Part shown: positions 2 to 15,192 of the stretch, piece by piece
Layout of the letters: each line of letters starts with the position of its first letter
Numbering within the stretch: position 1 is the first letter of the stretch
Source: Eubacteriales bacterium
GTDB taxonomy: Bacteria; Bacillota; Clostridia; Oscillospirales; CAG-272
Assembly (NCBI GenBank): GCA_045658525.1
Contig: JAZOVD010000035.1
Coordinates: 1 to 56,410 of the forward strand
Length of the DNA: 56,410 nucleotides
Direction of reading: 5' to 3'
The notes under the pieces: model-generated
Database searches by the model: none
The model's input: only the letters and a program-made list of their open reading frames with translations
What the model was told of the DNA's origin: nothing
Translations under genes and position numbers: made by a program

Positions 2-301
2 GCAAGTCTCGTACTTAAAATAACCATCAACGGCAGAACAACGACCTACAATGTAAGTGATCTTGTAGCTAACGAGGATACGGGCTATTACACCGTATAT
101 TTCCGCGGCATACTCGCGACGGAGTACGGTGACGTAGTAACTGCAAGCTTCTACAATGGAGAGACGCAGGTCGGACAGAGCGCAACGTATTCTATAAACT
201 CCTACGTTTACAGTATGCAGAACAGCGCGACCGAGAACCTTGCTCCGCTTGTACAGGCAACCTACAACTACGGCGTATCTGCTGAAAACTACGCAGGATA
301 A
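2..301 (+). CDS. 3' end of a large secreted/surface protein (5'-truncated by window) carrying the shared C-terminal domain
   Basis: Not in ORF track. Frame 2 is open from the window start to TAA 299-301: ...YFRGILATEYGDVVTASFYNGETQVGQSATYSINSYVY...LVQATYNYGVSAENYAG, homologous to the C-terminus of 772..5334 (YFDGILAVSFDQPVTAVF...YSVNSYIY...YNYGKSANTYFG). Confidence 0.9.
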   Translation, partial: ASLVLKITINGRTTTYNVSDLVANEDTGYYTVYFRGILATEYGDVVTASFYNGETQVGQSATYSINSYVYSMQNSATENLAPLVQATYNYGVSAENYAG

Positions 302-309
302 GGAGGTCA

Positions 310-459
310 ATGACAATGGAAAAGAAAATGTACGAAAAAGCCGAGCTTGAATATATCAAACTCAAAAAGGAAGATATAATAACGTTAAGCGGTGGCGGAG
401 ACGATTATATCGAAGACAACGGCGGTTTTGACACTCCCGACGACGAGTTTGCACAGTAA
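310..459 (+). CDS. small acidic peptide with RiPP-leader-like N-terminus (49 aa, or 47 aa from ATG 316)
   Basis: AGGAGG at 301-306 overlaps the upstream stop; MTMEKKMYEKAELEYIKLKKEDIITLSGGGDDYIEDNGGFDTPDDEFAQ; aligns without gaps to the N-half of 5361..5510. Confidence 0.8.
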   Translation: MTMEKKMYEKAELEYIKLKKEDIITLSGGGDDYIEDNGGFDTPDDEFAQ

Positions 460-469
460 GGATTTTTCT

Positions 470-540
470 CTTCTTTCTTGAAAGAAAGAAGCAAAGAACT
501 TTTCTCCCACGCTCCCGTGATACAAGAACGTGGGAGAAAA
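470..540. repeat. two inverted repeats after the peptide gene (possible terminator or dispersed repeat)
   Basis: CTTCTTTCTT-GA-AAGAAAGAAG and TTTTCTCCCACG...CGTGGGAGAAAA. Confidence 0.5.
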
Positions 541-592
541 TAGTTTGTTTATTTTTCTTCAAGAAAATAGAAAAGCCTATGTACAATAATCG

Positions 593-660
593 GTAGGGGG
601 CGGCACCCACGACGCCCCGAGCTCCCACCAAATTGGTAGGAGAGGGGCTTGCTCCTCCCG
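593..660 (+). repeat. two GTAG-type REP-like palindromes
   Basis: GTAGGGGGCGGCACCCACGACGCCCCG and GTAGGAGAGGGGCTTGCTCCTCCCG: GTAG followed by a GC-rich imperfect palindrome. Confidence 0.55.
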
Positions 661-771
661 AAACTCTCCACCAAACTAAATACCACCACTCTATGATACA
701 ATATTAAATTTTACGCAATGTTACCCATAGAAAAGTAGGCAACAAAAATAAAATAAAGAAAGGAACGCAAA

Positions 772-3700
772 ATGAAATCAACGAAAAAACTCGTTACGCT
801 GTTATCATTACTTTTAATGGTAATTATAGCAGTCCCTACCCTCGCTCTGACCGCTATATACGCTGACGACGACGAAGTCGAAGCGGCAAGCGGCACGTCG
901 ATTGACCTCTATCTTATAGGCGGTCAATCAAACGCATCGGGTACTTCTAAAATAGTAGATACCAATGCAGCATACGCACTTGCACCCGAGCTTAAAAACG
1001 GATTTAGCCACGTTTTATATGCAGGCAAGCCATTAAGAACCAGCTCATTCGACATAACTTGGGAACCCACCAAGCTCGGAATGGGTCAGAATACGGACTA
1101 TCTCGGACCCGAAGCGGGAATGGCAGTAGCTCTTTCCAAATACTACAACGCCGAGACGGGCAAGATAGCAGGTATCCTTAAATATGCTCACGGCGGAAGC
1201 AAGCTTTCGGGCAACGATACCACAAACACGTCGGCTAACTGGGTCTCTCCATCTTACGCCGAGGCAAACGGTTGGGATTACGGAACAGCCCCCACCGGCT
1301 TACACTATGCAGAATTTGTTAAAGTGTTCAAGGAAAAGGTAACCGCACTCGTTGATATGGGATATACCGATATAAACATAAAGGGTATGTACTGGATGCA
1401 GGGCGAGGGCGACAGAGGTGACAATGACCCTACTAACGAATCAAGGTACTATGCTATCGCGCTCAAATATCTGATAAGTGACCTTCGCGCCGATCTTTCA
1501 GATATAATGAAAGAGGTATATGTCACCGACGACGGCGGAGCTTCCGATATGCCCTTCTACATAGGCGCCATATCTGAAACCTTTGCTCTTTCCAATTCCA
1601 CCACACAGGCACTAAACCAGAAGTTTATAGAGATACAGAAATCAGTTGCCGCTGAGGTTGCAAACTGCTACTTCATAGACAACAGTCAGTACAAAATATC
1701 CGAATACGACCCTGAAACTAACTCTGCGATAGTCCTTGGAAGCGACACAGCGCATTGGAACCAATCGGATATACTCACGATAGGCCAGACCGTTGGCTTT
1801 GATATGTACAACTACGGCGTTATACCCGATGAATACGCAAGCACTTCAACCTATCCTTTCGTTGTTTTTAATGAGGGTACGTTCGTAGGCGCGGCTAAGA
1901 CGTGGGCAAATGCAAATAATCTCGCAAGAGTAGCCCTTGACGCTTCTAACGGAAGCACCATTTCCGTCTTTATGAGAGCAGACGTTTCATCAACAACAGG
2001 TATCTCTCACAATGACACGACCGGCGTTTCTGATAGAATCGCATTTATGAACGGTACGGTAGTAATCGACCTCGGCGGAAACACTATCACAAACACAAAG
2101 ACGTTATTTGAGGGTGGAACAAAGGTTTACGCAGGAAGCTTCGACACGACTTACATAGTCAAGAATGGAACGGTTCTCTGCGGTAGCGGAGTTATATTTG
2201 CTACCGAGTCAAGAAGCAACCACAATAAGAAGATGGATATCGTTTTCGATAACGTAAGGTTCGATACCGATCCTGCTCTTATTGAGGCTAATTCCAGAAA
2301 TAAAATGTTCCTTTCGTATTCTGATTCCGCAAGTTACACGGGAATTCTCGATCTCTCGCTCACCTTTAACAATTGTAAAATGAATCTTAGCGGTTTTTCG
2401 GAGACCTGCGCCTATACGGTATTTAGCTTCCCTTCAACCCCTGACGACGTAGCGGTCGATATAACCTTTAACGGCGGCGAGATACTCACTGACGAAGGCT
2501 TCGACTACGTTACGCTTGCGAATATCGACGCAAACGACACCTTGGTTTTCGACAAGAACGCTTCGGGTAATTATACCACTCTTACCGTTCCCGAGGACTA
2601 TACACCTCCCTTTATCAGCGGTGTAAACAACGAGGGAAAAACCGTTGTGTTCTGCGCAGATAATAAGGCAAAGAGCGGTTATCTTACCTATTCTCTCCGT
2701 GTGGAAAGAGATACCGCATACGGCGAGATACCTGAGAACTACGCAAACTTCAACACATACCCATTCGCTATGTTCGTTGACGGACAATTCAAATCTGTCG
2801 CAACAAACTGGACGGGTGCGTTAAATAATGCACGCGCATATCTCGTAAGCAACCCCGGAGATACAGTTAACGTCCTTATGCGTATTAACCAAAACGGCAC
2901 TTGGAACCCCGTAAAACTCGGACACGTTATGGGAACTATCAACATAGACCTCGGCGGATATTCTCTGACAAGAACTAACTGGTCTTTGTTAGAAGCTGCC
3001 ACCAATGATTACACGGATAGCAGTAGTGTTATACATACTATGGACGATACCAAAAGCGCAACTGCGGCAAATATCATAGTAAAGAACGGAACGATACTTG
3101 CAAACGGAAGCGTTGTAGCGTATCAGGTATACAACAATTACGATAAAACTATAAACGTTACCTTCGATACTGTAAAATTTGCTCTTGCCAAAACCGCCGT
3201 TTCTCAATTGAGCGTATCTTGGGCAGCACAAAATAGCGGAACGGGAATAATAAGCTCCGACATCAACTTCAAAAACTGCACTTTTGATTTCACCGATATT
3301 GTTCCTGAAAGCACGTTATATTTATCCGATTTCGCCAGAGGAGCTTCCTCACATAAAATAAACGTAACCTTTGACGGAGGAAGCATAAAGGGAACAGTCT
3401 CCAATATAAAGCCGTACAGCATAAGTGCAAACGACACCGTTAAGTTCATAAACAGCGGAAACGGCTACACAAAGTACCTTGCCAGCGCGGGAACTCCCGT
3501 TACCGGTGCGATGACCACCGATAAGGATACGATGTATTTCGCAAAAGACCCTATGGAAGCCGTAAGCGGTTACACCGTATATAAGCTCGGAGTTCAGTTC
3601 AGCGGTTACGGCACTGTTCCTGCTGAGTACTACTACGACACCTCTACATATCCTTTCGTTGCCGCTAAGAACGGAACGTTTATAGGCGCGGGAGCTTGGG

Positions 3701-5334
3701 CTAAGATAAACAACGTCGCAAGAGTGGTTCTCGACGCGGATAACGGCGCTACGGTCAATATCATTATGAGAGCAAACGCCACGTCAAACAGTATCGCTAC
3801 CGAAGACAGAATTTGCTTTATGAACGGCACGGTAACAGTTGACCTCGGCGGAAAAACTCTCACAAGCTCGAACACTGTATTCGAGGGCGGAACCAAGACT
3901 TACACAGGTAGCTTCGACACGACTTACATAGTCAAGAACGGAACTGTTCTTTGCGGTAAGGGCTTTATATTCGCTACCGAAAGCAGAAGCAACTACGATA
4001 AGAAGATGGATATCGTTTTCGATGGCGTAACCTTCGATGCCGATCCCGCTCTTATTGCGGCTAATTCCAGAAACAGAATGTTCCTTTCGTATAATGACCA
4101 AGCCGCTTACACGGGACTTCTCGATCTCTCGCTCACATTCAATAACTGCGTAATGGATCTGCGCGGTCTTACGATAGCTTACACGGTATTCAACTTCCCG
4201 TCAACTCCCGACGACGTTGCGGTCGATATAACCTTTAACGGCGGTAAAATACTCGGAGACGCAAGCTTTGACGGCGTTAAGCTCGCTACCATCGACTCAA
4301 ACGACACGTTTAAATTCGGTAAGTATAACAACGCCTACACCACGCTTACACTTCCCGTTGGAGTAAACGCTCCCGAGACGGTCTTTAATACCGTTATAGG
4401 CGAGAACGTCATATTCAAAAAGACCTCATCTACCGAAGCGGAGGTTAATTACGCGTTAAAGAATAACGATTTCAAGATAGTAACCACGTTCCTCAATCTC
4501 ACCTCTGACATCAATATCTATTTCAGAACAAATATTCCCGCGGGATACACCGATCCCTATATGCAATTCGTATTCAACGGAAACACCTATTCGACCGATG
4601 AGTACATTATAGACGAGAACGGAACTTACTGCTTCGCGTTCAAGAACATCGCTCCTCAGTATATGGGCGTAACGGTAAACGCCACGCTCTACGCAACGTA
4701 CAACGGCGAGACGGTGAGCTACGAGAGCAACGGTTTCAGTATTCTCACCTACTGCAAATATCTGCTTGACAACCACACAGACGAAAAACTCCTTGCTCTT
4801 GTAAGCGACCTGCTCGTTTACGGCGCAAAAGCTCAGGTATATGCAGACTATGACGTCGATAATCTCGTTACAAACGGTCTTACACTCGATGACGCAAGCG
4901 TATTCGAGACCCTTGACCAAAGCGCAAACAAGCTCACCCTCACAGGCGAGGCTTCCGAGCTTGCCGATTGGAAGAACGTCGGTCTCTACCTTGAAAACGA
5001 CATCGCGCTCAAGCTTGGCTTCACCGCTGAATCGACCGAGGGTCTTACGGTTGAGATAACCGTAAACGGAAACACCACGGTAATAGATACTTCCACGCTC
5101 ACACTCGATGACGACGGTGTTTACAGAATATACTTTGACGGAATACTCGCTGTAAGCTTCGATCAGCCTGTTACCGCGGTATTCAAGCTTAACGGCGAGC
5201 AGATAGGACAGACTATCACCTACTCTGTGAACTCTTATATTTACATAAATCAGAACTCGGATGACAACGCGCTTCTCGAACTTATCGAGGCTATATACAA
5301 TTACGGTAAGTCCGCTAACACCTACTTCGGCTGA
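772..5334 (+). CDS. large secreted protein: SASA/CE6-like SGNH acetylesterase domain, three ~300-aa repeats and the shared C-terminal domain
   Basis: Signal peptide; GGQSNASG, WMQGEGD and DTAH motifs; repeats beginning YGxIP/VPxxY...YPF at nt 1813, 2719, 3607; RBS GAAAGGA. Confidence 0.85.
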   Translation: MKSTKKLVTLLSLLLMVIIAVPTLALTAIYADDDEVEAASGTSIDLYLIGGQSNASGTSKIVDTNAAYALAPELKNGFSHVLYAGKPLRTSSFDITWEPTKLGMGQNTDYLGPEAGMAVALSKYYNAETGKIAGILKYAHGGSKLSGNDTTNTSANWVSPSYAEANGWDYGTAPTGLHYAEFVKVFKEKVTALVDMGYTDINIKGMYWMQGEGDRGDNDPTNESRYYAIALKYLISDLRADLSDIMKEVYVTDDGGASDMPFYIGAISETFALSNSTTQALNQKFIEIQKSVAAEVANCYFIDNSQYKISEYDPETNSAIVLGSDTAHWNQSDILTIGQTVGFDMYNYGVIPDEYASTSTYPFVVFNEGTFVGAAKTWANANNLARVALDASNGSTISVFMRADVSSTTGISHNDTTGVSDRIAFMNGTVVIDLGGNTITNTKTLFEGGTKVYAGSFDTTYIVKNGTVLCGSGVIFATESRSNHNKKMDIVFDNVRFDTDPALIEANSRNKMFLSYSDSASYTGILDLSLTFNNCKMNLSGFSETCAYTVFSFPSTPDDVAVDITFNGGEILTDEGFDYVTLANIDANDTLVFDKNASGNYTTLTVPEDYTPPFISGVNNEGKTVVFCADNKAKSGYLTYSLRVERDTAYGEIPENYANFNTYPFAMFVDGQFKSVATNWTGALNNARAYLVSNPGDTVNVLMRINQNGTWNPVKLGHVMGTINIDLGGYSLTRTNWSLLEAATNDYTDSSSVIHTMDDTKSATAANIIVKNGTILANGSVVAYQVYNNYDKTINVTFDTVKFALAKTAVSQLSVSWAAQNSGTGIISSDINFKNCTFDFTDIVPESTLYLSDFARGASSHKINVTFDGGSIKGTVSNIKPYSISANDTVKFINSGNGYTKYLASAGTPVTGAMTTDKDTMYFAKDPMEAVSGYTVYKLGVQFSGYGTVPAEYYYDTSTYPFVAAKNGTFIGAGAWAKINNVARVVLDADNGATVNIIMRANATSNSIATEDRICFMNGTVTVDLGGKTLTSSNTVFEGGTKTYTGSFDTTYIVKNGTVLCGKGFIFATESRSNYDKKMDIVFDGVTFDADPALIAANSRNRMFLSYNDQAAYTGLLDLSLTFNNCVMDLRGLTIAYTVFNFPSTPDDVAVDITFNGGKILGDASFDGVKLATIDSNDTFKFGKYNNAYTTLTLPVGVNAPETVFNTVIGENVIFKKTSSTEAEVNYALKNNDFKIVTTFLNLTSDINIYFRTNIPAGYTDPYMQFVFNGNTYSTDEYIIDENGTYCFAFKNIAPQYMGVTVNATLYATYNGETVSYESNGFSILTYCKYLLDNHTDEKLLALVSDLLVYGAKAQVYADYDVDNLVTNGLTLDDASVFETLDQSANKLTLTGEASELADWKNVGLYLENDIALKLGFTAESTEGLTVEITVNGNTTVIDTSTLTLDDDGVYRIYFDGILAVSFDQPVTAVFKLNGEQIGQTITYSVNSYIYINQNSDDNALLELIEAIYNYGKSANTYFG

Positions 5335-5360
5335 TAACGAGGCTCAGAAAGGAAATAACG

Positions 5361-5510
5361 ATGAATAACAAAAAGACATACGTTTCTGCCGAGATAAAGC
5401 TCATTGATATGAGCGAAAGCGACGTAATAAGAACCTCATCTGACGTACCCGGAATCAATCTTCCGGACGTTGAGCTTTCCTCTTATTTTTCAGGTAAATA
5501 CGACGCCTGA
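5361..5510 (+). CDS. small acidic peptide with RiPP-leader-like N-terminus (49 aa)
   Basis: RBS GAAAGGA; MNNKKTYVSAEIKLIDMSESDVIRTSSDVPGINLPDVELSSYFSGKYDA; lies between the big gene and the terminator; paralog of 310..459. Confidence 0.8.
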   Translation: MNNKKTYVSAEIKLIDMSESDVIRTSSDVPGINLPDVELSSYFSGKYDA

Positions 5511-5520
5511 TTCTAAGTAA

Positions 5521-5564
5521 AAACAAAAAGCTGTCTGAACAAAAGTTCAGACAGCTTTTTGTTT
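5521..5564. terminator. bidirectional intrinsic terminator
   Basis: AAACAAAAAGCTGTCTGAAC-AAAA-GTTCAGACAGCTTTTTGTTT perfect hairpin between convergent genes. Confidence 0.9.
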
Positions 5565-5573
5565 TAATTGTTT

Positions 5574-6131
5574 TTACGGAGCTATCGTGCCTAAATCATT
5601 TGTCACTCCCCATGCTTCCTCGACTACGCTTGCGGGTGATGACTGTATAGCGGATGCGAGTACCCGAACCGAAAGCTTATAACCGTCCGGCGCGTCAGAT
5701 ACCGCTTTACAGCTGTTTATAAGGTTAGAGGTCGAGGCATTAGGGGCAATGGCTTTTTTATGATACCAAAACCCGTCCGCGCCCTTTACCCAGTCGCTGG
5801 CGCCAAATTCAACGGTATAGTCAGTTCCCATAACAGGAACCTGAGAAAGTACGGTACTGCTATCTGTTTCCGATACCCAATTCACTATGATAATGGCACG
5901 GATAAAGGCGTCTGTATCGCCTGTGTTTTTGACGGCAACGTCACTCTTGGTACTGCCATCAAACGTTTCAGTTATCTCGCACGAAACGCGCGCAGGATCA
6001 AACTTGTTGTCGAGCGAGTCGGTCTTTGAGATTATAAGAGCCACCGTTCCGCCAACCGCGATAGCGGTTAAGATAATGACAGAGACGAGCAACGCCGTCA
6101 TTTTTTTAGATATTCCGTTAAAAATCGGCAT
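5574..6131 (-). CDS. SipW-dependent signal peptide protein (TasA/camelysin-like subunit)
   Basis: GGTVALIISKTDSLDNKFDPARV signal motif; VKNTGDTDAFIRA; start chosen at the ATG after AGGAGG. Confidence 0.8.
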   Translation of the reverse strand: MPIFNGISKKMTALLVSVIILTAIAVGGTVALIISKTDSLDNKFDPARVSCEITETFDGSTKSDVAVKNTGDTDAFIRAIIIVNWVSETDSSTVLSQVPVMGTDYTVEFGASDWVKGADGFWYHKKAIAPNASTSNLINSCKAVSDAPDGYKLSVRVLASAIQSSPASVVEEAWGVTNDLGTIAP

Positions 6132-6154
6132 ATACCCGCCTCCTTTCATTTTAT

Positions 6155-9100
6155 TTAATCAAAAACGTTAGTACTGATGCTGTTTCCGTCAAGCCACTTG
6201 TCGTTGCTTCTGCTATTGTTGAAGCTTACAGTATTGGAAGAAATGTTAACGCTGAGCGTTACCTCCCTGCTCGGGAGCGCCGTATCGTAACGCCACGACC
6301 AATCGGTAAGCTCGCTGACCGTGTATTTTCCGACAGGTAATTTCGCTACCGTTACCGAACCGTTACCGATAATACTTACGATAATATCTATGTTTTCGGT
6401 CTCCGTTCCGGAAACTCCGACTATTCTGAATATAAACGCCTGATCGGAGTCCGCGCTTTGAGTACCCAAGGTGCTGATAGTGAAATCCGTATTATCCGGA
6501 TCAAATCTCGCGTAATACGTCTGGTTATCCACCCATACGGCGTCACTCGCCTTTTGAGGCGTGAATTTGTTTGTTACAGGATCGACCCACGAGCTGTTTA
6601 CCGGCATAGTTCCCGCCGTATCAAGGAACCAACCGACAAAATGATAACCCGCGCTCGGTGTAGGAACAGAACCGTTTGCGACACCCGAGATCGCCGTTAC
6701 GTTCTCGGAATATTGACTGAGCGTTCCGCAGCCGTCAACTCCTACCGTCTGATATTTGATCGCTACCACCGCTTCCTGATATACGAACTCGATAACGTTG
6801 TGCGTAACGTTTGCTGAAAGCGTCATAGTCTTTGCGCTCTCACTTACCAGATTGTAACCTTTATTCGTAAGATCAGGAGCATAACTGACTATCTGCTCTC
6901 CGAAAAATCCCGTACCGTTTTGAGGAGCGATGATCGACGTTCCCGTACGGTTATCCACGTACATCACCGTATATGAGACCTCTTGGCGGTCATAGTACAT
7001 TTCTACGAGCATACCGCCCGTTCCAAGCTCATGAGTTACCTGAGAACTATTTACGGGAGTAAGCACTCCGTCTATCTTTGTCAACGCTCCGTTAAACTCA
7101 AAGCCTGTCAGTTCCAAAGCGTCAATAGTATAGCTTTCGCCTATATTACCTACCGTTTCTACGGAACGGTATTCGCGGTAAGTATCCTTAGAGATGTTTT
7201 CAATGTAGTGTACCACTTTGTAATAAGCGTGTACCTCGTCCGCCTTATAGTTAAACGTAATAACGTTACTGTCAAGTATGCCGTCTCCGTCCGTATCATC
7301 TCCCGAAGCTGACAGTATAAGACGCTTCTGATAAGCGTCAGGCATCATCTTATCTACTCTTATAAACGTTTCGGTAACTACCGACAGATTATTATTATCA
7401 ACCTTCTTTTGAGGCAACACTTCCGCGCCCGTATCCGCATCAAGATAACGAACTATATACGGCATACTTTCAACGTAAATATACTCGAACGTAAACGTAT
7501 GCGTTCCGTCAACGCTCATCGTGATCGTATGGCTGTTTACGAGAGGATAATAGCCCTCTCCGTATCCGTCGTACAGTTCGCTTCCAGCCTTAGCGTAGAA
7601 GGTCTCATTATGTCCCGCGATAGCGCTTCCTACCGTAGGATCGGCTATCGGCTCGCCCGTGCTTTGTAAAACGTAATTTATGGTATAATCGACCGATACG
7701 TGCGAGCTCCATTCGGCATAGATATTCATATCCTCGAAAACGGGAATGCTGTTAAAAGCGAACGCTTTTCTTTGCTGTACTCCATCGACCGTGTCCATAT
7801 AGAACCAGCCCTGGAATATATAGTTCCCGTTTTCGACAGCCTCCGTAGGAGCGTTAGCAAGCTCCTTATGCTTTACGTACTGGGTTTCGCCTATCTGCTC
7901 GGTAAGCGTAGCGTCCTTGAAAACCTTTACCGTATGAAGTATCGGTTCCCATTTCGCGTACAGCATCATATCGCCTTCAAGCATCGTTATGGTATCCCAG
8001 TTTACCTCCGTGCCGTCAAAGCACCCCGACGAGGTGTACCAACCGCCGAACGTATAAGCATTCGGTTCAAGGTTGGACGGATAATCGGGAGTAAACTCAT
8101 ACTCTTTAAGAGAATGACCGTACATTATGCCTGATACATTCTTATCGTTCAGAACTATACCGTTATTATTGAACTGCAACATGTGCTCGGTTATACGGGC
8201 ATAATAGAAATCTATATTTTTACTGCTGTTTATCTGATTACTGCTGTTAAATCCCGGATTTGAGGTAAGCTGAACGTAACCTTTTATATCAAAGAAGTCC
8301 TCCTGACGTGTAACGTAGCTGTATCTTGCCTTTACAGTCATCTTCAAAATATATTGCTTACCGCCGTATTCGTGAGTGTAAGCCTCACCCGGCAGGACTT
8401 CCAGATAATAATTCATCGTGTAAGGCTCGTTTGTGCTCTCGTCTAAGGTAAGCGTCATATTGCCCGGCGACATGTTCGCTATATATACCAAAACCTCGGT
8501 ATAGTAATCCGTTCCGGACGGATCCCAACGCTGTCCGTCGTCGTATAAAACTCCGTTATCATCCAATACCGGCCATATATCTTCAAGCGACTGCTGATAT
8601 TTACGCTGAACGATCTTAACAGTATTCACAGAGCCTGAATTATTGCAGGTATTCGAATGAGTGTGTCCTACGGGTATAGGACAGGTAAGCAAAAGACAGG
8701 TATCGATATGAACGTGAGGATCCGACCCACAGGAATAGCTGTAACAGTCCTCTCCGTGTGTATGGAGCTGATCCTTGTAGCAGGAATCCGTATGTGCGTG
8801 CTGCTCTACCGAACAACAGTCGTCTCCGTGAATATGCTCTGTTTCTCCGCATCGCGGATCAACTATATCCCCCGACGACGCGCCCCAGCCGTTATATCTG
8901 TACCACGTTCCCGCAATGTAGATATAGTAGTAATAGCTTCTTCTGTATATCTGTCCGTTCTGGGGATTGCTCGGCGCGTTAGCCGGAGTTGACGCGTTGC
9001 CGACGCTGGACCAACAGGATTTTGTATGAGTATGGATGACCGCGGAGCAACAGGCATCGCTATGCGTATGCTCGACTTTTCCGCAAGTAAGACATTCATC

Positions 9101-10753
9101 GCTATGCGAAATATGCTCGGGTACAGTACAGGTAAGCGTAGGATCACATTCAGCCGAGTGAACGTGCGCCTTTCCGCATATCGCGGTATAACAGTCATCG
9201 TTATGAGTATGTCCCACGGGAACAGAGCATTTTCCCTCTGCCTTGAAGGTTATGGTGTATCTGTTTCTTGTATAATAAACGTTTACAACGGTACTTCCGT
9301 CACCCTCTACCATAACGTTATGGTCGGTCATAGCGGAATTGTAGGTGAAATAGTCAACGTCAGTAACTCCCGCGACCTCGGATATGCGGTCCGCTCCGTT
9401 TACGTAAGAGCCTGACATCGCCGCTATCCCGTCAAGATAACCCCAATAGCTGTAACCGTTATCGTCCGCATTCTCCTTCCAGAATACCATGGTGTATTCC
9501 GTTTCCTGCGTTATCCAGCGCGCGCGGTAGGTGAGATTAGCGTTCGGAATAACTATCGTTGAACCGTTTATATCATACTGTGACGCTTGCTCGGTAGTAG
9601 GTGCCTGACCACCGTAATAAACAAGCTCCCAGCCGTCGAAAACGTATCCGTGACGTGTAGGATCGTTCGCTCCCACGGTAGAACCGTATCTCATATACAT
9701 CGGCTCTGTTCCGAAGCCGCCGTTTATATCGAAATCTACAAAATAATAGTTACGGTTATAGCGTATCTCTACCACCGTACTTCCGTCTGCCGCTACCGTC
9801 AGGCGCTCATATTCCAACGCCTTAAATCCGGGAAGCTCTTTCTCCGTCAAGGCAAGATTTTCAGCGACAATGCTTCCGGTCAACGCTTTTCCGTATGTTA
9901 TCAGGTCGTAGTTTACCGAATAATCGTCATCATCCAGATGCTGCAAATGGTGATGCACGGCAAAGTCCACGAGCGCAGGCTCGTATATAACGTTTATGGT
10001 TATATCAGAGTTTATGTTCGTGTAACTAAGCTCGACCGTTTTCGCTTCTATGTAATCCTCGCCGCTACGTCTGAAAGGCGCGTATCCTACGACCTCAGGG
10101 CTGGTAATTACAGCACTGAAATCACTTCCCTTTGCGACAGAAGCACCGTACGGCTCGAACGCGATAGCGTTATTATCGAAAAGATAGTTTATAACTATGG
10201 AATAGGTGATATGCTCCTCATCGCTTAACGCCGCGACCGAATACTCGGAAACAGAGGGAGCGGGCTTTGGCAGTAAATATTGACCACTGCTGTCCTTTCC
10301 GTCATTTACGCTCTGAGATATTCTGACCTCTATCGACTCACTCGGATACTGATCGCTCTTATCTTTAAGAACGCAACGTATATTAGCCCTTCCGCTCGCG
10401 TCCAGCATACTGCCGACAAGCGAATAGGAAACGTCCAACGTTTTCCTTGTCGCGCCGTGTATGTTTATCCAGCGAGAGGCATCCGTTCCGCTGAGTATCT
10501 GCCACTGATATTTTACTCCGTCGGCGTTTTTAGCCGAGGCGGTCAGCGTTACCTTTCCGTTATCGGGAACTATTATAGCCGATACCGCTTCTCCGTCCAT
10601 CGTGATAGCTATATCGCTCGGCTTCCCGCTTTCCGCGGCATCCCCCTCCGCGAATACAGGAAAAGCCATATAAGGCACAGAGGTCAAAAGCATAGTAAAA
10701 ACAAGTATAAGAGTCAGGATACGCTTGGTATTTTCTCTGATACGTTTCTTCAT
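6155..10753 (-). CDS. large secreted adhesin-like protein with MucBP-like and InlB-B/Flg_new-like repeats and a His-Cys-rich segment
   Basis: AAGGAGG RBS then MKKRIRENT signal peptide; repeated GYVFDGW/YTFGGWY/YIFQGWF/YHFVGWF...YAxW and YTINYV...GEPIA/VRYLDADTG units; 10 HxH...C repeats. Confidence 0.8.
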   Translation of the reverse strand: MKKRIRENTKRILTLILVFTMLLTSVPYMAFPVFAEGDAAESGKPSDIAITMDGEAVSAIIVPDNGKVTLTASAKNADGVKYQWQILSGTDASRWINIHGATRKTLDVSYSLVGSMLDASGRANIRCVLKDKSDQYPSESIEVRISQSVNDGKDSSGQYLLPKPAPSVSEYSVAALSDEEHITYSIVINYLFDNNAIAFEPYGASVAKGSDFSAVITSPEVVGYAPFRRSGEDYIEAKTVELSYTNINSDITINVIYEPALVDFAVHHHLQHLDDDDYSVNYDLITYGKALTGSIVAENLALTEKELPGFKALEYERLTVAADGSTVVEIRYNRNYYFVDFDINGGFGTEPMYMRYGSTVGANDPTRHGYVFDGWELVYYGGQAPTTEQASQYDINGSTIVIPNANLTYRARWITQETEYTMVFWKENADDNGYSYWGYLDGIAAMSGSYVNGADRISEVAGVTDVDYFTYNSAMTDHNVMVEGDGSTVVNVYYTRNRYTITFKAEGKCSVPVGHTHNDDCYTAICGKAHVHSAECDPTLTCTVPEHISHSDECLTCGKVEHTHSDACCSAVIHTHTKSCWSSVGNASTPANAPSNPQNGQIYRRSYYYYIYIAGTWYRYNGWGASSGDIVDPRCGETEHIHGDDCCSVEQHAHTDSCYKDQLHTHGEDCYSYSCGSDPHVHIDTCLLLTCPIPVGHTHSNTCNNSGSVNTVKIVQRKYQQSLEDIWPVLDDNGVLYDDGQRWDPSGTDYYTEVLVYIANMSPGNMTLTLDESTNEPYTMNYYLEVLPGEAYTHEYGGKQYILKMTVKARYSYVTRQEDFFDIKGYVQLTSNPGFNSSNQINSSKNIDFYYARITEHMLQFNNNGIVLNDKNVSGIMYGHSLKEYEFTPDYPSNLEPNAYTFGGWYTSSGCFDGTEVNWDTITMLEGDMMLYAKWEPILHTVKVFKDATLTEQIGETQYVKHKELANAPTEAVENGNYIFQGWFYMDTVDGVQQRKAFAFNSIPVFEDMNIYAEWSSHVSVDYTINYVLQSTGEPIADPTVGSAIAGHNETFYAKAGSELYDGYGEGYYPLVNSHTITMSVDGTHTFTFEYIYVESMPYIVRYLDADTGAEVLPQKKVDNNNLSVVTETFIRVDKMMPDAYQKRLILSASGDDTDGDGILDSNVITFNYKADEVHAYYKVVHYIENISKDTYREYRSVETVGNIGESYTIDALELTGFEFNGALTKIDGVLTPVNSSQVTHELGTGGMLVEMYYDRQEVSYTVMYVDNRTGTSIIAPQNGTGFFGEQIVSYAPDLTNKGYNLVSESAKTMTLSANVTHNVIEFVYQEAVVAIKYQTVGVDGCGTLSQYSENVTAISGVANGSVPTPSAGYHFVGWFLDTAGTMPVNSSWVDPVTNKFTPQKASDAVWVDNQTYYARFDPDNTDFTISTLGTQSADSDQAFIFRIVGVSGTETENIDIIVSIIGNGSVTVAKLPVGKYTVSELTDWSWRYDTALPSREVTLSVNISSNTVSFNNSRSNDKWLDGNSISTNVFD

Positions 10754-10795
10754 AATTATTGACCTCCTTTCCTTTTTATCCTCACTTAAAAGGCA

Positions 10796-10829
10796 CAGAA
10801 CGATAGCCCGAATTCGAGCTACCGTTCTG
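10796..10829 (-). terminator. intra-operon hairpin (partial terminator or mRNA stabiliser) before the adhesin gene
   Basis: Minus strand CAGAACGGUAGCUCG-AAUU-CGGGCUAUCGUUCUG, 15 bp including G-U pairs, then UGCCUUUU. Confidence 0.6.
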
Positions 10830-10866
10830 CACCCCCGCTCCCTCAAAGAGCGGGAATGCTTTAAAG

Positions 10867-11604
10867 TTATTGCATTACAAACTGAGACGCGAACGCGCCG
10901 AGCATAGCGTCGTAGCAGGTCTCAAAGCCGAAATCCTGTACCGCACACGCCTGTATCTTTATTTCAAGCTCCACCAGCTCTTTTATCTCACCGTTATTCC
11001 ATTCATCGGGAATAGACAGAGTATCGAAAAGCTCGACCGAATCTCCCGTAGCGAATTTTTCGAGCATAAAGAAGTAGAACTCATATTTTCCATCAGTCGG
11101 ATTCGGTATCTGCACCATAGCGTAACGGTCGTTATGGCATACGTTGTCAAAACCGTTCCACGTTCCGACGTGAACCGTTTCGTCAAGCAAGCCACCGCCA
11201 AGCAAGATCTCTATATCGATAGCGTTCATTCCGGGGTATCCCATAACGTTACGAATATCGCCTTCGCCGTCCGATATGATTATTTTAGCCGCTATCCAGG
11301 CGTTTTCAGTTCCGACGTTCTTGACAGTTGGGTCTTTATGCAGAGTCTGACCGGGATATATCCTGCCGTAATCCCGCACGCTACCCATTTCTGTCGCCAA
11401 AATTCTCGGAAGCGTAGTATCCTCAACAAGGTTACCCACAGCATCGGATTTTACCGCCGCCTCGGAAAGCTCTATATACACGTTTCCTGCGGTATATGTA
11501 TTCGTTGTCTGCTTAATATCGCTGAAATACGCGAAAGTAACGCCTGTAAACGCCGCTATCGCTACACAAAGTATCAAGACAGACGATATGACCTTTATTT
11601 TCAT
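10867..11604 (-). CDS. SipW-dependent signal peptide protein (TasA/camelysin-like)
   Basis: GVTFAYFSD...NTYTAGNVYI; KDPTVKNVG; terminal ACAVQ. Confidence 0.85.
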   Translation of the reverse strand: MKIKVISSVLILCVAIAAFTGVTFAYFSDIKQTTNTYTAGNVYIELSEAAVKSDAVGNLVEDTTLPRILATEMGSVRDYGRIYPGQTLHKDPTVKNVGTENAWIAAKIIISDGEGDIRNVMGYPGMNAIDIEILLGGGLLDETVHVGTWNGFDNVCHNDRYAMVQIPNPTDGKYEFYFFMLEKFATGDSVELFDTLSIPDEWNNGEIKELVELEIKIQACAVQDFGFETCYDAMLGAFASQFVMQ

Positions 11605-12191: not shown

Positions 12192-12938
12192 TTACTCGCC
12201 GATCTGAGTTCCGTTCTCGTAAGGATATGCCGCAACGATAGCCGCCCAAGCGTGCTGTACCGCGGTCTTGCCGTCCTTATCCTCGAAGCTGTCTGCCTGT
12301 ATAGCGAAAGCGGTAAGCGTTACCTTAGCACCGCCGTAGAGCTTAACATCCGCATTCGTAGATACCTTAAAGCTGTCAAATACGTCGATCGACTGCATCT
12401 CAGTAGTTCCGCCAACGATCTTAGGCGCACGCGTTTTGTTCTGAATAGCCGTAAGATTATCACCGGAAAGCTCTGTTCCGTCAGAATTTACACCGGTGTA
12501 AAGATAGACCATTCCCGTGCTCGTGTTTACAAACTCCTGCCAGCCGTGAGCCGCCATCTGCTGCGCGATCGTGGGCGCATCCGTTGCCTCGATGGTATCG
12601 ATATTATTTCTGACCTTTACGAACAAATACGCTTCATCGCAGTTTGCGTTTATGTAAATGGTCGGGTCCTTAACGTATGTAAGACCGGGCATAAGATGGT
12701 AGCTGTTACCGTCGGAGTCCTTCATAGCACCGTTGATGTTAGGATCGTCCGCTACCTTGTCCTGACCCTTATTGGTAACCTTGGACTCAAACATGTGGAT
12801 AGCAACGTCACCTACGGTAAACGTGTTCGAAACAGCAGCGGATGCGGTCATAAACGCGATAGTTCCCATAACGGATACCACCACAAGAGCCACCATTACG
12901 ACGAGTAATGCGAAAATCGTTAAAAGCTTCTTTTTCAT
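12192..12938 (-). CDS. SipW-dependent signal peptide protein (TasA/camelysin-like, likely major subunit)
   Basis: MGTIAFMTA...NTFTVGDVAI; KDPTIYI; AFAIQ; RBS AAGGAG. Confidence 0.85.
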   Translation of the reverse strand: MKKKLLTIFALLVVMVALVVVSVMGTIAFMTASAAVSNTFTVGDVAIHMFESKVTNKGQDKVADDPNINGAMKDSDGNSYHLMPGLTYVKDPTIYINANCDEAYLFVKVRNNIDTIEATDAPTIAQQMAAHGWQEFVNTSTGMVYLYTGVNSDGTELSGDNLTAIQNKTRAPKIVGGTTEMQSIDVFDSFKVSTNADVKLYGGAKVTLTAFAIQADSFEDKDGKTAVQHAWAAIVAAYPYENGTQIGE

Positions 12939-13018: not shown

Positions 13019-13558
13019 TTATTTGTCCTGCGTATCGTCTTCCGCCTCTTTTTCCTTACCGTCAGACCATAGCTCGGGCAGTATCATAACTATTATCAAC
13101 ACGAGGCAAAACGCAATAGCGAAATACGTTCCCGGCGGATTCTGTACGAAATAGGCGAAATATCCCATATACGGGATCGTGAAAACGGGCTTGCCGATAA
13201 TATCCTCCATACGGCGAGCGCCGCCGTCGGGAATATTGTTCGCTTCTCCCTGAGTTCTGAAATACCTTACGTTCGGATCGTTTTGGTCATATACGACCTC
13301 GATTATCTTGTGAGTAACGATCTTACCGCTTTCAGCTCTGTACGTTACGGGATCCTCCTCTTTCAAGGTCAAGGGATCGACCTTTTTTACGTATATGAGC
13401 GAGCCGACGTGATATATCGGCTCCATAGAGCCTGAAAGCACGGCGTAAGGTCTGAGCCCTATGACACGAACACCAACAAGCAATATTCCAACGATGATGA
13501 CTAATACCAGCATAACGGTCGTCATCGTTCCGAATACCTTTCTCAGCACCCCCGTCAC
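13019..13558 (-). CDS. sipW: signal peptidase I, SipW (ER-type) family
   Basis: VLSGSMEP (Ser), VTHKI (His), TQGEANNIPD, two TM segments; heads an operon of cognate substrates. Confidence 0.9.
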   Translation of the reverse strand: MTGVLRKVFGTMTTVMLVLVIIVGILLVGVRVIGLRPYAVLSGSMEPIYHVGSLIYVKKVDPLTLKEEDPVTYRAESGKIVTHKIIEVVYDQNDPNVRYFRTQGEANNIPDGGARRMEDIIGKPVFTIPYMGYFAYFVQNPPGTYFAIAFCLVLIIVMILPELWSDGKEKEAEDDTQDK

Positions 13559-13671: not shown

Positions 13672-13700
13672 TTGACGTTTTCACGAAGATATGCTAAACT
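13672..13700 (+). promoter_or_regulatory. sigma-A promoter of the glycoside hydrolase
   Basis: TTGACG-17-TAAACT with TG; supports GTG 13729 as the real start. Confidence 0.65.
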
Positions 13701-13728
13701 GATAAAAACATCTCAAAGGAGACAGAAC

Positions 13729-15192
13729 GTGGCAGACATAAGATATACTGTTCTCGATCCAAAGGAACACGAGAAAAGATTCAGGCATACCATAGGAAAG
13801 CTCTCGCCATTCGAAGTAGGCATACCGCTTCTCGATATTTCAGAATGCAATATCCAAGAAATATATTATTACCGCCAACACACGTTTTGCAGACATATAA
13901 GAAGCACCCCCGAGGGCTATATAGTAACGGAATTTTACCCCGACGTTCCATGGGCGGGAAAATACAACACAATATCCTGTCCCGCGGGTCATCATCTGTA
14001 CGAGGGACGGTGGCTCCACGACCAAAAATATCTGAGCGATTATATAAGGTTCTGGTTCTCCGAGGGTGCTGACCCGAGGCTTTACAGCTTCTGGGCGGCA
14101 AACTCAGTTCTTGCCGTTTGCAAGGTCACGGGTAACTTCATTCTCGCCAAAGAGCTGTATAATGACCTCAAAAACAATTATGCCGAGCTTGAAAAAAAGC
14201 ACGGTATGGATAACGGTCTTTTCTACCAGACAGACGACCGCGACGGAATGGAATACTCCATAGGCGGAAGCGGTTGCCGTCCTACTATAAACTCATATAT
14301 GTTCGGAGACGCGAAGGCTCTTGCCGAAATCGCCAAGCTCCTTGGAAAAGAGGACGAGGCGCAAATTTATGAGAAAAAAGCCGAGGGCATACGCGAAAAG
14401 GTCAATAACATGCTCTGGGATAAAACTTCCGAGTTCTACAAAACGCTCTCCGAAAAAAACAATTACGAGCTTGCCGACGTCCGCGAGCTTGTCGGATACG
14501 TTCCGTGGTATTTCGACCTGCCCGACGATGATAAATCAGTCGCTTGGCGTTTTCTTAACGACAAAAATCACTTTGCATCTCCTTACGGTCCTACGACCGC
14601 TGAGCGGTGTCACCCCGATTTCATGAAAGAGTTCGACCACGAATGTCTCTGGAACGGTCCATCTTGGCCGTTCGCCACATCTCAAACGTTGACCGCGCTT
14701 GGAAATCTGCTCGTTAACCGTTCCCAGAACGTAATGACACGCTCGGATTATTTCCGTCTGCTCCGTCAGTACGCAATGGAGCAGCACTTGACCGAAAACG
14801 GTATTACCGTACCGTTCATTGACGAGGACCTCGACCCGTTCACGGGGGAATGGATAGCGCGCAGAGAGCTGCGCAAAATGAAGTCGCCCCCGGGCGGTGC
14901 GGATCGCGGTGAGCATTACAATCATTCGACCTTCTGCGACCTCGTTCTTAACGGACTGGCAGGGGTGCGTCCGAGTATCGAAAATGCCCTTACGATCAAC
15001 CCCCTATTCGCCGAAAACGACCTCGACTACCTTTGCGCGGACGGTATCCGCTACCACGGTCATACCGTGTGCGTTATGTGGGACAGAACGGGTAAGCGTT
15101 ACCAAAAAGGCACGGGATTTTTCGTTTACGTTGACGGAAACGAGGTCTTCTCCTCGCCCGTACCGACTGATAGCGTAACAAATCTTGTGTAA
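13729..15192 (+). CDS. MGH1-like / GH63-related (alpha/alpha)6 glycoside hydrolase
   Basis: GHHLYEGRW, DDRDGME, RPTINSYM, WNGPSWPFATSQ, YNHSTFCD; RBS AAAGGAG before GTG. Confidence 0.8.
   Translation: MADIRYTVLDPKEHEKRFRHTIGKLSPFEVGIPLLDISECNIQEIYYYRQHTFCRHIRSTPEGYIVTEFYPDVPWAGKYNTISCPAGHHLYEGRWLHDQKYLSDYIRFWFSEGADPRLYSFWAANSVLAVCKVTGNFILAKELYNDLKNNYAELEKKHGMDNGLFYQTDDRDGMEYSIGGSGCRPTINSYMFGDAKALAEIAKLLGKEDEAQIYEKKAEGIREKVNNMLWDKTSEFYKTLSEKNNYELADVRELVGYVPWYFDLPDDDKSVAWRFLNDKNHFASPYGPTTAERCHPDFMKEFDHECLWNGPSWPFATSQTLTALGNLLVNRSQNVMTRSDYFRLLRQYAMEQHLTENGITVPFIDEDLDPFTGEWIARRELRKMKSPPGGADRGEHYNHSTFCDLVLNGLAGVRPSIENALTINPLFAENDLDYLCADGIRYHGHTVCVMWDRTGKRYQKGTGFFVYVDGNEVFSSPVPTDSVTNLV

Follow-up and report, generated by a model that had tools for sequence, protein, structure and literature searches.

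Candidate peptide precursors behind giant secreted-protein genes of gut and rumen Clostridia resemble those of linear polyphosphorylated peptides

The closest described counterparts of the genes treated here are the linear polyphosphorylated peptides (LPP) of Bacillota, found in Bacilli and encoded by lppA-K-B-S-D-N clusters (Popov et al., Nat Commun 2026, PMC13381572). According to the main text of that paper, the precursor LppA has a leader with the motif YxxPxVLxHQxIxFETxxS that is bound by LppB, a discrete RiPP recognition element (RRE; RiPP, a peptide made on ribosomes and modified after translation). The HprK-like kinase LppK polyphosphorylates the Ser at position +3 of LppA, and the signal-peptidase-I-like LppS, which the paper handles as soluble and as partnering the RRE, cuts after T-1. 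The cluster also includes the exporter LppD and the nucleoside triphosphate (NTP) transferase LppN. The function of LPP is given as unknown, and the clusters are often located in capsule loci (PMC13381572). Here we describe two small genes, at positions 310-459 and 5361-5510 of contig JAZOVD010000035.1 of an Eubacteriales bacterium (assembly GCA_045658525.1), together with the family to which they belong. The window analysed, 56,410 nucleotides (nt), is the entire contig (C35) and is part of a 1.6 Mb genome (G000) in 108 contigs that is 88% complete; its relatives in public records are gut and rumen Clostridia. Judging from sequence, the small genes are likely to code for precursors made of a leader and a short acidic core, which would belong to an RRE-dependent RiPP pathway, a Clostridial sister of LPP, and be co-transcribed with giant secreted proteins.

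Both small open reading frames (ORFs) are present as first described, each starting 8-26 nt past the stop codon of a large gene and preceded by its own Shine-Dalgarno site, so that the first-pass annotation of this contig, which had noticed two small genes with ribosome-binding sites behind giant secreted-protein genes, was correct on this point. The contig opens with the last 99 codons (2..301, plus strand) of a giant secreted-protein gene truncated by the contig start; they encode the last copy of a domain here called CTH, ending in ...LVQATYNYGVSAENYAG. The Shine-Dalgarno sequence AGGAGG (301..306, plus strand) overlaps the stop codon of this gene, and a junction of identical sequence opens contigs C1 and C30. 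The next ORF, peptide 1 ('type A', plus strand), occupies 316..459, with an alternative start at 310. ATG316 (47 amino acids, aa) is a likelier start than ATG310 (49 aa) because AGGAGG ends 9 nt before the former and only 3 nt before the latter; the paralogues begin M/V-K-K-x-Y. Peptide 1 consists of a leader-like MEKKMYEKAELEYIKLKKEDIITLS followed by the acidic core GGGDDYIEDNGGFDTPDDEFAQ, matches the family profile A1 with E 4.8e-27 and is part of a subfamily in which D19, S24 and FDxPxD are invariant. A long, GC-containing hairpin at 500..540 (19-pair stem scored on the minus strand, with a T-rich tract after the stem on the plus strand) is probably the end of its transcription unit. Peptide 2 (5361..5510, plus strand, 49 aa), whose start is preceded by GAAAGGAAA, has a leader-like MNNKKTYVSAEIKLIDMSESDVIRTS and the core SDVPGINLPDVELSSYFSGKYDA and is a divergent member of the family (E 1.4e-12, and E 1.7e-9 to the broad profile A2). 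No terminator-like element was found between this peptide and the stop codon of the giant gene before it (5334), and an intrinsic terminator at 5521..5564 (plus strand, 20-pair stem followed by a T run) closes the unit formed by both genes. The two peptides share the ungapped motif KKxYxxAE[LI]xxIx[LM]xxxD[IV]IxxS and a second one, GFDTPDDEF / GINLPDVEL, exactly as had been claimed, and a pairwise BLASTP comparison gave E = 7e-6. Neither Pfam nor NCBIfam contained a family matching them at E <= 1, and a sequence search of the PDB with the peptide profile gave PA2G4 matches only, at chance level (E 0.5-1).

The genome was scanned for similar ORFs by regular expression and by profile searches. 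The former gave 15 copies, all of them (15/15) with a Shine-Dalgarno site, and the latter 20 to 21 (the weakest of the 21 has E 0.0019). Other genomes in our samples have 1-14 copies, and the 20 found here are the highest number seen. Among six type-A paralogues there are 31, 8 and 110 differences at codon positions 1, 2 and 3, and 103 synonymous against 31 non-synonymous codon differences. The divergence is concentrated at third codon positions and the paralogues are therefore under selection at the protein level. A profile built from 18 members and run against 1.84 billion representatives at a cut-off of E <= 1e-3 matched 2,713 clusters (at 50% identity), so that the profile scan of small ORFs proposed in the first-pass annotation gave a large family, conserved at the amino-acid level. 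Among the 150 matches listed all are 33-67 aa long except P0018 (1324 aa), the sole long protein among them, in which 'GYKSEDIIRLASHGGGS' occurs within 14 tandem repeats of ~33 aa; this repeat protein seems unrelated and to have been matched by chance through a short 'EDIIxxS' stretch. A search for longer ORFs fusing peptide and giant protein gave no useful case among 8,000 scored candidates, which is weak evidence; its sole two matches were a 146-aa chimera of peptide and SepF domain and a 102-aa ORF. Some contigs of this genome begin or end inside a repeat made of a giant-gene 3' end and a peptide gene (C1:1-184, C30:1-187, C35:1-459, C14:1-155 and C81:10651-10768), the junction being identical in C1, C30 and C35. 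This repeat breaks the assembly, and therefore the true copy number and the neighbours of some peptides are uncertain.

The family consensus is MKKxYEx(P/A)ExExIEFxxED(V/I)ITTSG with a short acidic tail behind it. Conservation is confined to the leader, whereas cores vary. D-h-h-x-x-S, with its conserved Ser, was found in 138 of 140 aligned members, and the Tyr is nearly invariant. The position three residues after the Tyr was readable in 134 members, of which 80 have Pro there and 46 Ala. Beyond the Ser the median length is 17 aa and the net charge -4, and a (L/T/M/I/V/A)-P dipeptide is included in 79/138. An (E/D)-L-P-F-V-P or L-P-x-x-P motif recurs at the end of many cores, and small secreted proteins with genes beside such cores have it too, internally or terminally (examples are L072:6425-7147, L088:4339-4728 and 4768-4887, L115 and G000:C70:6982-7134). 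Family peptides with giant upstream genes were also seen on short contigs of bins labelled Prevotella, Paludibacteraceae and Synergistaceae (L088, L105, L137), which could be due to binning error or to lateral transfer.

No cognate maturase was seen in the window by the first-pass annotation, and this agrees with the genome, whose only PqqD match is on another contig, C5. There, the proposed search for PqqD/RRE, peptidase and nucleotidyltransferase genes elsewhere in the genome led to a single operon that also encodes an HprK-like kinase. The putative kinase (C5:8057-8854) is a 265-aa P-loop protein upstream of the PqqD gene. This copy had no Pfam or NCBIfam match and that of a relative matched hpr-ser and ScmC weakly; the profile of the kinase family (A7) also matches housekeeping HPr kinases over positions 78-238 (~1e-45 to 1e-55). 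The PqqD-type protein (C5:7761-8039), product of the only PqqD gene of the genome, matches PF05402 with 1e-15 (58 bits against a cut-off of 23.4); its best scores are to lasso PqqD models, below their cut-offs. Downstream lies a gene for a signal-peptidase-I-like protease of 160 aa (C5:7282-7764), with a match to sigpep_I_arch below the cut-off (E 1.3e-6) and SM(Y/F)P, HR and GD motifs visible by eye, and after it one for a 413-aa NTP_transf_5 protein (C5:6044-7285; PF14907, 1.7e-37). No radical SAM gene was seen in this operon. A PqqD gene in the genome and a leader of aromatic-x-x-Pro type are the general features expected of a PqqD-family RRE and its substrate, and by these the small ORFs qualify as candidate substrates.

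In the relatives the peptides and this operon are found side by side. The kinase-PqqD-peptidase triad is kept in the loci of eight of them, and in G008 and G038 a family peptide lies directly upstream of it. To survey this more widely, species-representative genomes were scanned by pattern, giving 368 confirmed loci, of which 79 were retrieved. These come from a narrower alignment (A3) and are thus skewed to the '...EDVITTS' consensus type; their sources are Lachnospiraceae, Oscillospiraceae, Ruminococcus (including R. flavefaciens isolates), Roseburia, Blautia, Coprococcus and others, with a few bins under other labels. Defining the triad as kinase, PqqD and peptidase genes within 8 kb and a giant gene as an ORF that reaches 500 aa or more and stops just upstream of the peptide, the triad was near the peptide in 34/79 loci, and in 13 of the 26 that have full 8-kb flanks. 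Triad and giant gene occurred together in 16 of the 79 loci, the triad alone in 18, the giant gene alone in 22 and neither in 23; the corresponding figures for the 26 loci with full flanks are 7, 6, 9 and 4. In a typical locus the gene for the giant secreted protein is followed by those for the peptide, a small lipoprotein-like protein, the kinase, PqqD, the peptidase, an ABC exporter (ABC_membrane + ABC_tran) and NTP_transf_5, the exporter thus lying within the canonical loci of the relatives.

Some loci have Cys-rich cores on the same leader (L059:8915-9181, minus strand, and L095, L107, L108, L109 and L123, with the peptides near position 8000). These peptides are located after a gene of 451-486 aa, a radical SAM gene in L059, and before the kinase, PqqD and peptidase genes, and look like a radical-SAM sub-branch of the family.

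The association holds across genomes as well. We used 300 genomes sampled evenly from the class, and 41 close relatives; related genomes are not independent, and because of this the figures are descriptive counts without statistical tests. Kinases in the 300 genomes were tallied by hand and only full-length matches were accepted, those limited to profile positions 78-238 in frames of ~300 aa being excluded as housekeeping HprK; G312, whose copy is truncated by the contig end and adjoins a peptide, was counted as positive. The peptide was present in 45/300 genomes and a full-length kinase of the operon type in 54/300. The kinase was found in 43 of the 45 genomes with peptide versus 11 of the 255 others. 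Among the close relatives the proportions are 13/14 and 7/27, and the exception in the former group (G017) shows a weak match inside a 763-aa frame. Because of the gene set and order of the operon and of the 43/45 versus 11/255 co-occurrence, the most likely reading of the peptides is that of LPP-like precursors undergoing processing in trans. A substrate of RiPP type processed in trans had been one of the roles put forward in the first-pass annotation, and it is well supported by the operon on C5 and by the peptide preceding the operon in relatives, with the biochemistry predicted by homology.

The other partner in this association is the giant secreted protein. In the window, peptide 2 follows the gene for a 1520-aa secreted protein (772..5334, plus strand) with an N-terminal signal peptide (by eye), a SASA-type carbohydrate esterase domain at residues 45-324, a repetitive middle part and two tandem CTH domains recognized by the CTH profile (4462-4848 and 4945-5331, plus strand). 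The homology noted earlier between the C-termini of the two upstream giant genes was confirmed with this profile (C35:20-298, E 6.7e-24; C35:4945-5331, E 9.6e-29). In the ~125 aa of CTH a beta-sandwich comes first and then a helical hairpin, whose end reads ...L..L.KALY.Y..AA..Y. The last 130 aa of the 1520-aa protein were modelled by AlphaFold2 with a pLDDT of 95.7, and Foldseek searches of the PDB with the CTH model gave weak beta-sandwich matches only, the best being the CBM56 structure 5t7a (E 1.2e-3, TM 0.38/0.50). These matches are too weak, and CTH was not adopted as a carbohydrate-binding module. The domain is present in 15 ORFs of this genome; in 13 of these it is the C-terminal unit, and there it is always a tandem pair unless the ORF is truncated by a contig start.

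A family peptide is found within 200 nt after 12 of the 15 CTH ORFs. The exceptions are an ORF running off its contig, one with the peptide upstream, and a third giant gene of the window (15283-19977, minus strand), coding for a 1565-aa secreted protein with four Laminin_G_3 domains, a sialidase N-terminal domain, a metallophosphoesterase and a tandem CTH end; no family peptide follows it, and a convergent gene (13672-15192) leaves ~90 nt. Conversely, some peptides come after giant proteins whose ends are of another kind (C70, C106), and some before secreted proteins (C31). For 14 CTH-ending proteins of other genomes the next element is a peptide in 6, the kinase operon directly in 2 and neither in 6. 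In the retrieved loci 75 ORFs upstream of peptides reach 250 aa or more, and a strict regular expression assigns a helical-type end to 24 of them; an estimate by eye, not computed, would be ~40 of helical type and ~10 with a second, beta-type motif, and 6 of the 75 are proteins of ~452 aa similar to the product of the radical-SAM-scoring gene in L059.

At the level of genomes, the co-occurrence of domain and peptide suggested for testing in the first-pass annotation holds for every CTH genome of the class sample. CTH was found in 10/300 genomes, all of them among the 43 that have both peptide and kinase (10/43 versus 0/257 others), and in 11 of the 41 relatives, all kinase-positive (11/20 versus 0/21 kinase-negative). 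In G001 (L066, G001:C15), G005 (L170, G005:C24) and G006 (C7:152830-154247), three species of the same genus, a giant gene ending in CTH (~1650-1710 aa) lies directly before the kinase operon. No family peptide was found between the two in the retrieved loci of G001 and G005, while for G006 the order is known from coordinates only; in G001 there is a terminator in the gap between giant gene and operon. The giant gene also belongs to the same gene array where canonical loci of distant families are concerned. Furthermore, among the paralogues the core subtype follows the CTH subtype (types A and B).

From these data a pathway can be proposed, every biochemical step of which is drawn from homology and gene neighbourhood. 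The K-K-x-Y-x-x-[P/A]-x-[L/I/M] segment of the leader would be bound as a beta-strand by the PqqD-type protein of C5, after which the HprK-like kinase would phosphorylate, probably repeatedly, the invariant Ser of D-[I/V]-I-x-x-S. The signal-peptidase-I-like protease, taken as soluble, would cut the leader near T-x-S, the NTP_transf_5 enzyme may add a further group, and the ABC exporter that is a member of the operon in relatives would release an acidic product of ~17-25 residues. One machinery would thus serve ~20 precursors dispersed over the genome, each precursor gene being the last cistron of a unit whose main gene codes for a giant protein ending in tandem CTH. Sharing a transcription unit, peptide and giant protein would therefore be made together, and very probably they act together outside the cell. 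A more specific and tentative idea, which we consider possible at best, is that the processed, phosphate-bearing acidic peptide serves outside the cell as ligand or anchor for CTH, a RiPP 'tag' for each giant enzyme or adhesin. It is compatible with the restriction of CTH to genomes with peptide and kinase, with the position of the giant gene before the operon in G001, G005 and G006, and with the recurrence of (E/D)LPFVP in small secreted proteins of the same loci.

Several observations weigh against an LPP-like pathway. For positions 4600-5600 of the window a look-up of sequencing runs gave no RNA run, and a single DNA run with a share of 0.07. In this genome the C5 operon includes no exporter, the best ABC matches to the exporter of a relative being generic (25-30% identical), and no precursor gene adjoins it. 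Neither operon nor giant gene was within reach in 23/79 loci, many of them on short contigs, 2 of the 45 peptide-bearing genomes lack the kinase and 11 genomes have the kinase with no peptide detected. The leaders are also different, ...ExExIEFxxEDVITTSG in the Clostridia versus ...VLxHQxIxFETxxS in LPP, with the spacing off and Ala often in place of Pro. Only YxxP/A-x-hydrophobic and the T-x-S / T-T-S junction are shared with the published LPP motif, the HQ middle differs, and 'IEFET' is three residues closer to the Tyr in the family consensus than in that motif and absent from the copies of the window. The P-13A substitution weakened LppA-LppB binding (PMC13381572), and 10 of the 15 copies found here by regular expression have Ala at this position; Ala is a common natural variant within the peptide family, and Ala-variant leaders are also found directly before the operon (e.g. 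L072). As tabled in the same paper, the RREs linked to Clostridial peptidases are 'RRE others', with no LPP RRE and with LPP precursor 'ND', which argues against a place in the monophyletic LPP RRE clade, and Clostridial peptidases of the operon type are in clusters 4 and 9 of the sequence similarity network (e.g. uncultured Ruminococcus, Anaerocolumna). Finally, a PDB sequence search with the C5 RRE gave no chain of 9x8z (LppB) at E <= 1, and its matches were lasso B1 proteins, weak ones (6jx3, E 0.0087; 9x90, E 0.24).

The alternative that survives best, although we judge it unlikely, is that the peptide is mainly an unmodified partner of CTH, such as a small chaperone, an anchor or a subunit that complements a strand or helix, its likeness to a RiPP leader being secondary. 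The tight adjacency of both genes, here (12/15) and to a lesser extent in other genomes (6/14), the fact that all ten CTH genomes of the class sample bear the peptide and the tracking of core and CTH subtypes are all in its favour. However, co-duplication of gene and peptide as a unit can also produce this tracking, and conservation of the leader rather than the tail is the opposite of what would be expected for a fixed binding partner. Peptides are present near the kinase/PqqD/peptidase operon without a giant gene in 18/79 loci, elsewhere 2-4 copies form an array, or the cores are Cys-rich and a radical SAM gene lies beside them, and the peptides follow giant proteins with other C-termini (C70, C106, beta-type ends). 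The dedicated partner of the C-terminal domain envisaged by the first-pass annotation is thus supported only as a genomic association, strikingly tight as it is, and in 18 of the 79 loci the peptide has the operon beside it and no giant protein.

It is also conceivable that the peptides are LPP-like precursors and that it means nothing for their function that they lie after giant genes, either because they borrow the promoter of strongly expressed genes or because they spread with repeated 3' ends by recombination, and that the product is a free bacteriocin or signal. The repeat that breaks the assembly at five contigs (C1, C30, C35, C14, C81) makes cassette duplication plausible, and many family members have no giant neighbour. 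Yet such a hitch-hiking peptide would hardly explain the confinement of CTH to the genomes with peptide and kinase in the class sample and to kinase-positive ones among the relatives, the CTH gene placed directly before the kinase operon in G001, G005 and G006 (with no peptide between them in the G001 and G005 loci) or the giant gene as part of the array in canonical loci of distant families, and we give this explanation little credence.

That they are lasso-peptide precursors is highly improbable. The first-pass annotation had compared the leader with those of lasso peptides, and the comparison is apt as far as the YxxP-type RRE motif goes: there is a YxxP-like leader, a Thr near the putative cleavage site and a PqqD protein that scores best, below cut-offs, with lasso models, and a core of peptide 1 starting at Gly would place Glu8/Asp9 in ring-forming position. 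Nevertheless, no match to the B2 transglutaminase-like peptidase (Transglut_core3, PF13471) was found in this 88% complete genome, and the only strong PF00733 match is an ordinary asparagine synthase, AsnB (468.6 bits to TIGR01536 against a cut-off of 267.1; 156 against 525 for the lasso cyclase model). Moreover, most cores are of 9-20 aa without a consistent acidic residue at positions 7-9, and the associated peptidase is of the serine signal-peptidase type. A lasso system was thus rejected. Lastly, that the small ORFs are untranslated, being chance ORFs or RNA-level elements in 3' untranslated regions, has next to nothing in its favour in view of the strong Shine-Dalgarno sites at 15/15 copies, the coding-type divergence over codon positions and the amino-acid conservation across 2,713 clusters.

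If the LPP-like assignment is right, it provides precursors for the Clostridial branch that is listed without precursors in the tables of the LPP authors (PMC13381572). This branch would be very large in gut and rumen bacteria, as reflected by the 2,713 clusters and 368 confirmed loci, and as many as ~20 dispersed precursors would depend on a single maturation operon. The link with CTH is a concrete lead to the function of the peptides, in the cell-surface biology of abundant commensals, and hundreds of small ORFs and giant proteins now called 'hypothetical' could gain a better annotation. Should the peptide indeed be a ligand or anchor of CTH, this would be the first function for LPP-type peptides, a tag that tethers, addresses or switches the giant protein at the surface, and a new display mode for surface proteins without sortase or S-layer motifs.

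Several known systems can be compared with this one. One is SipW/TasA-type secretion. The C5 peptidase is distantly related to archaeal-type signal peptidase I / SipW, but the genome has separate SipW genes and the C5 enzyme is linked to a kinase and an RRE. One of those SipW genes is in the window, where a bona fide SipW-type, archaeal-type signal peptidase I (13082-13525, minus strand, 90.5 bits) is encoded near three proteins with BsaA-family or SipW-dependent-type signal peptides (5574-6149, 10870-11604 and 12195-12938, minus strand). The genes of this locus surround that of a 1563-aa protein with Listeria-Bacteroides repeats and a long Cys/His-rich repeat region (6155-10846, minus strand). 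Because this separate peptidase exists, ordinary SipW substrates do not require the one encoded on C5.

Phosphorylated lasso peptides such as paeninodin and pseudomycoidin (PMC7533575; PMC13381572) are another. As far as described in these sources, they have in common with the system presented here an HprK-like kinase acting on the peptide, a tailoring enzyme of NTP_transf_5 type and a PqqD-type RRE for a leader with [Y/W]xxP. Here, in contrast, there is neither lasso cyclase nor B2 cysteine peptidase, and the leader peptidase is of the serine signal-peptidase type. Within the family itself, the radical-SAM cassettes of relatives (L059, L095, L107, L108) have the same kinase/PqqD/peptidase/nucleotidyltransferase module and the same leader, whereas the peptides of the window have no Cys.

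LPP share most with this system. On the published description, LPP clusters and the canonical Clostridial loci encode, in the same order, a precursor, an HprK-like kinase, a discrete PqqD-type RRE, a signal-peptidase-I-like peptidase, an ABC exporter and an NTP_transf_5 protein, and both systems have a leader start of the type KKxYxxP, a Thr/Ser pair at the leader-core junction and no macrolactam cyclase. Besides the leader, the differences are the short acidic cores, the up to 14-20 dispersed precursors per genome with a single machinery, the position of the precursors behind giant secreted CTH proteins, the usual presence of an extra small lipoprotein-like gene, and the hosts, gut and rumen Clostridia here and Bacilli for LPP. 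The word stems 'clostridi', 'surface', 'adhesin' and 'orphan' are absent from the main text of the LPP paper (PMC13381572), and no description of the peptide family or of its link with giant proteins was found in full-text literature, a body from which subscription journals are mostly missing. Because the leader differs, the LPP authors table 'RRE others' with precursor 'ND' and no LppB chain was matched, we file the system as a distinct branch. Most likely, to judge by its genes, it works like LPP but is a separate and uncharacterised line, in which three features are apparently new: the distinct leader, a machinery with as many as 20 dispersed precursors, and the tie with giant proteins.

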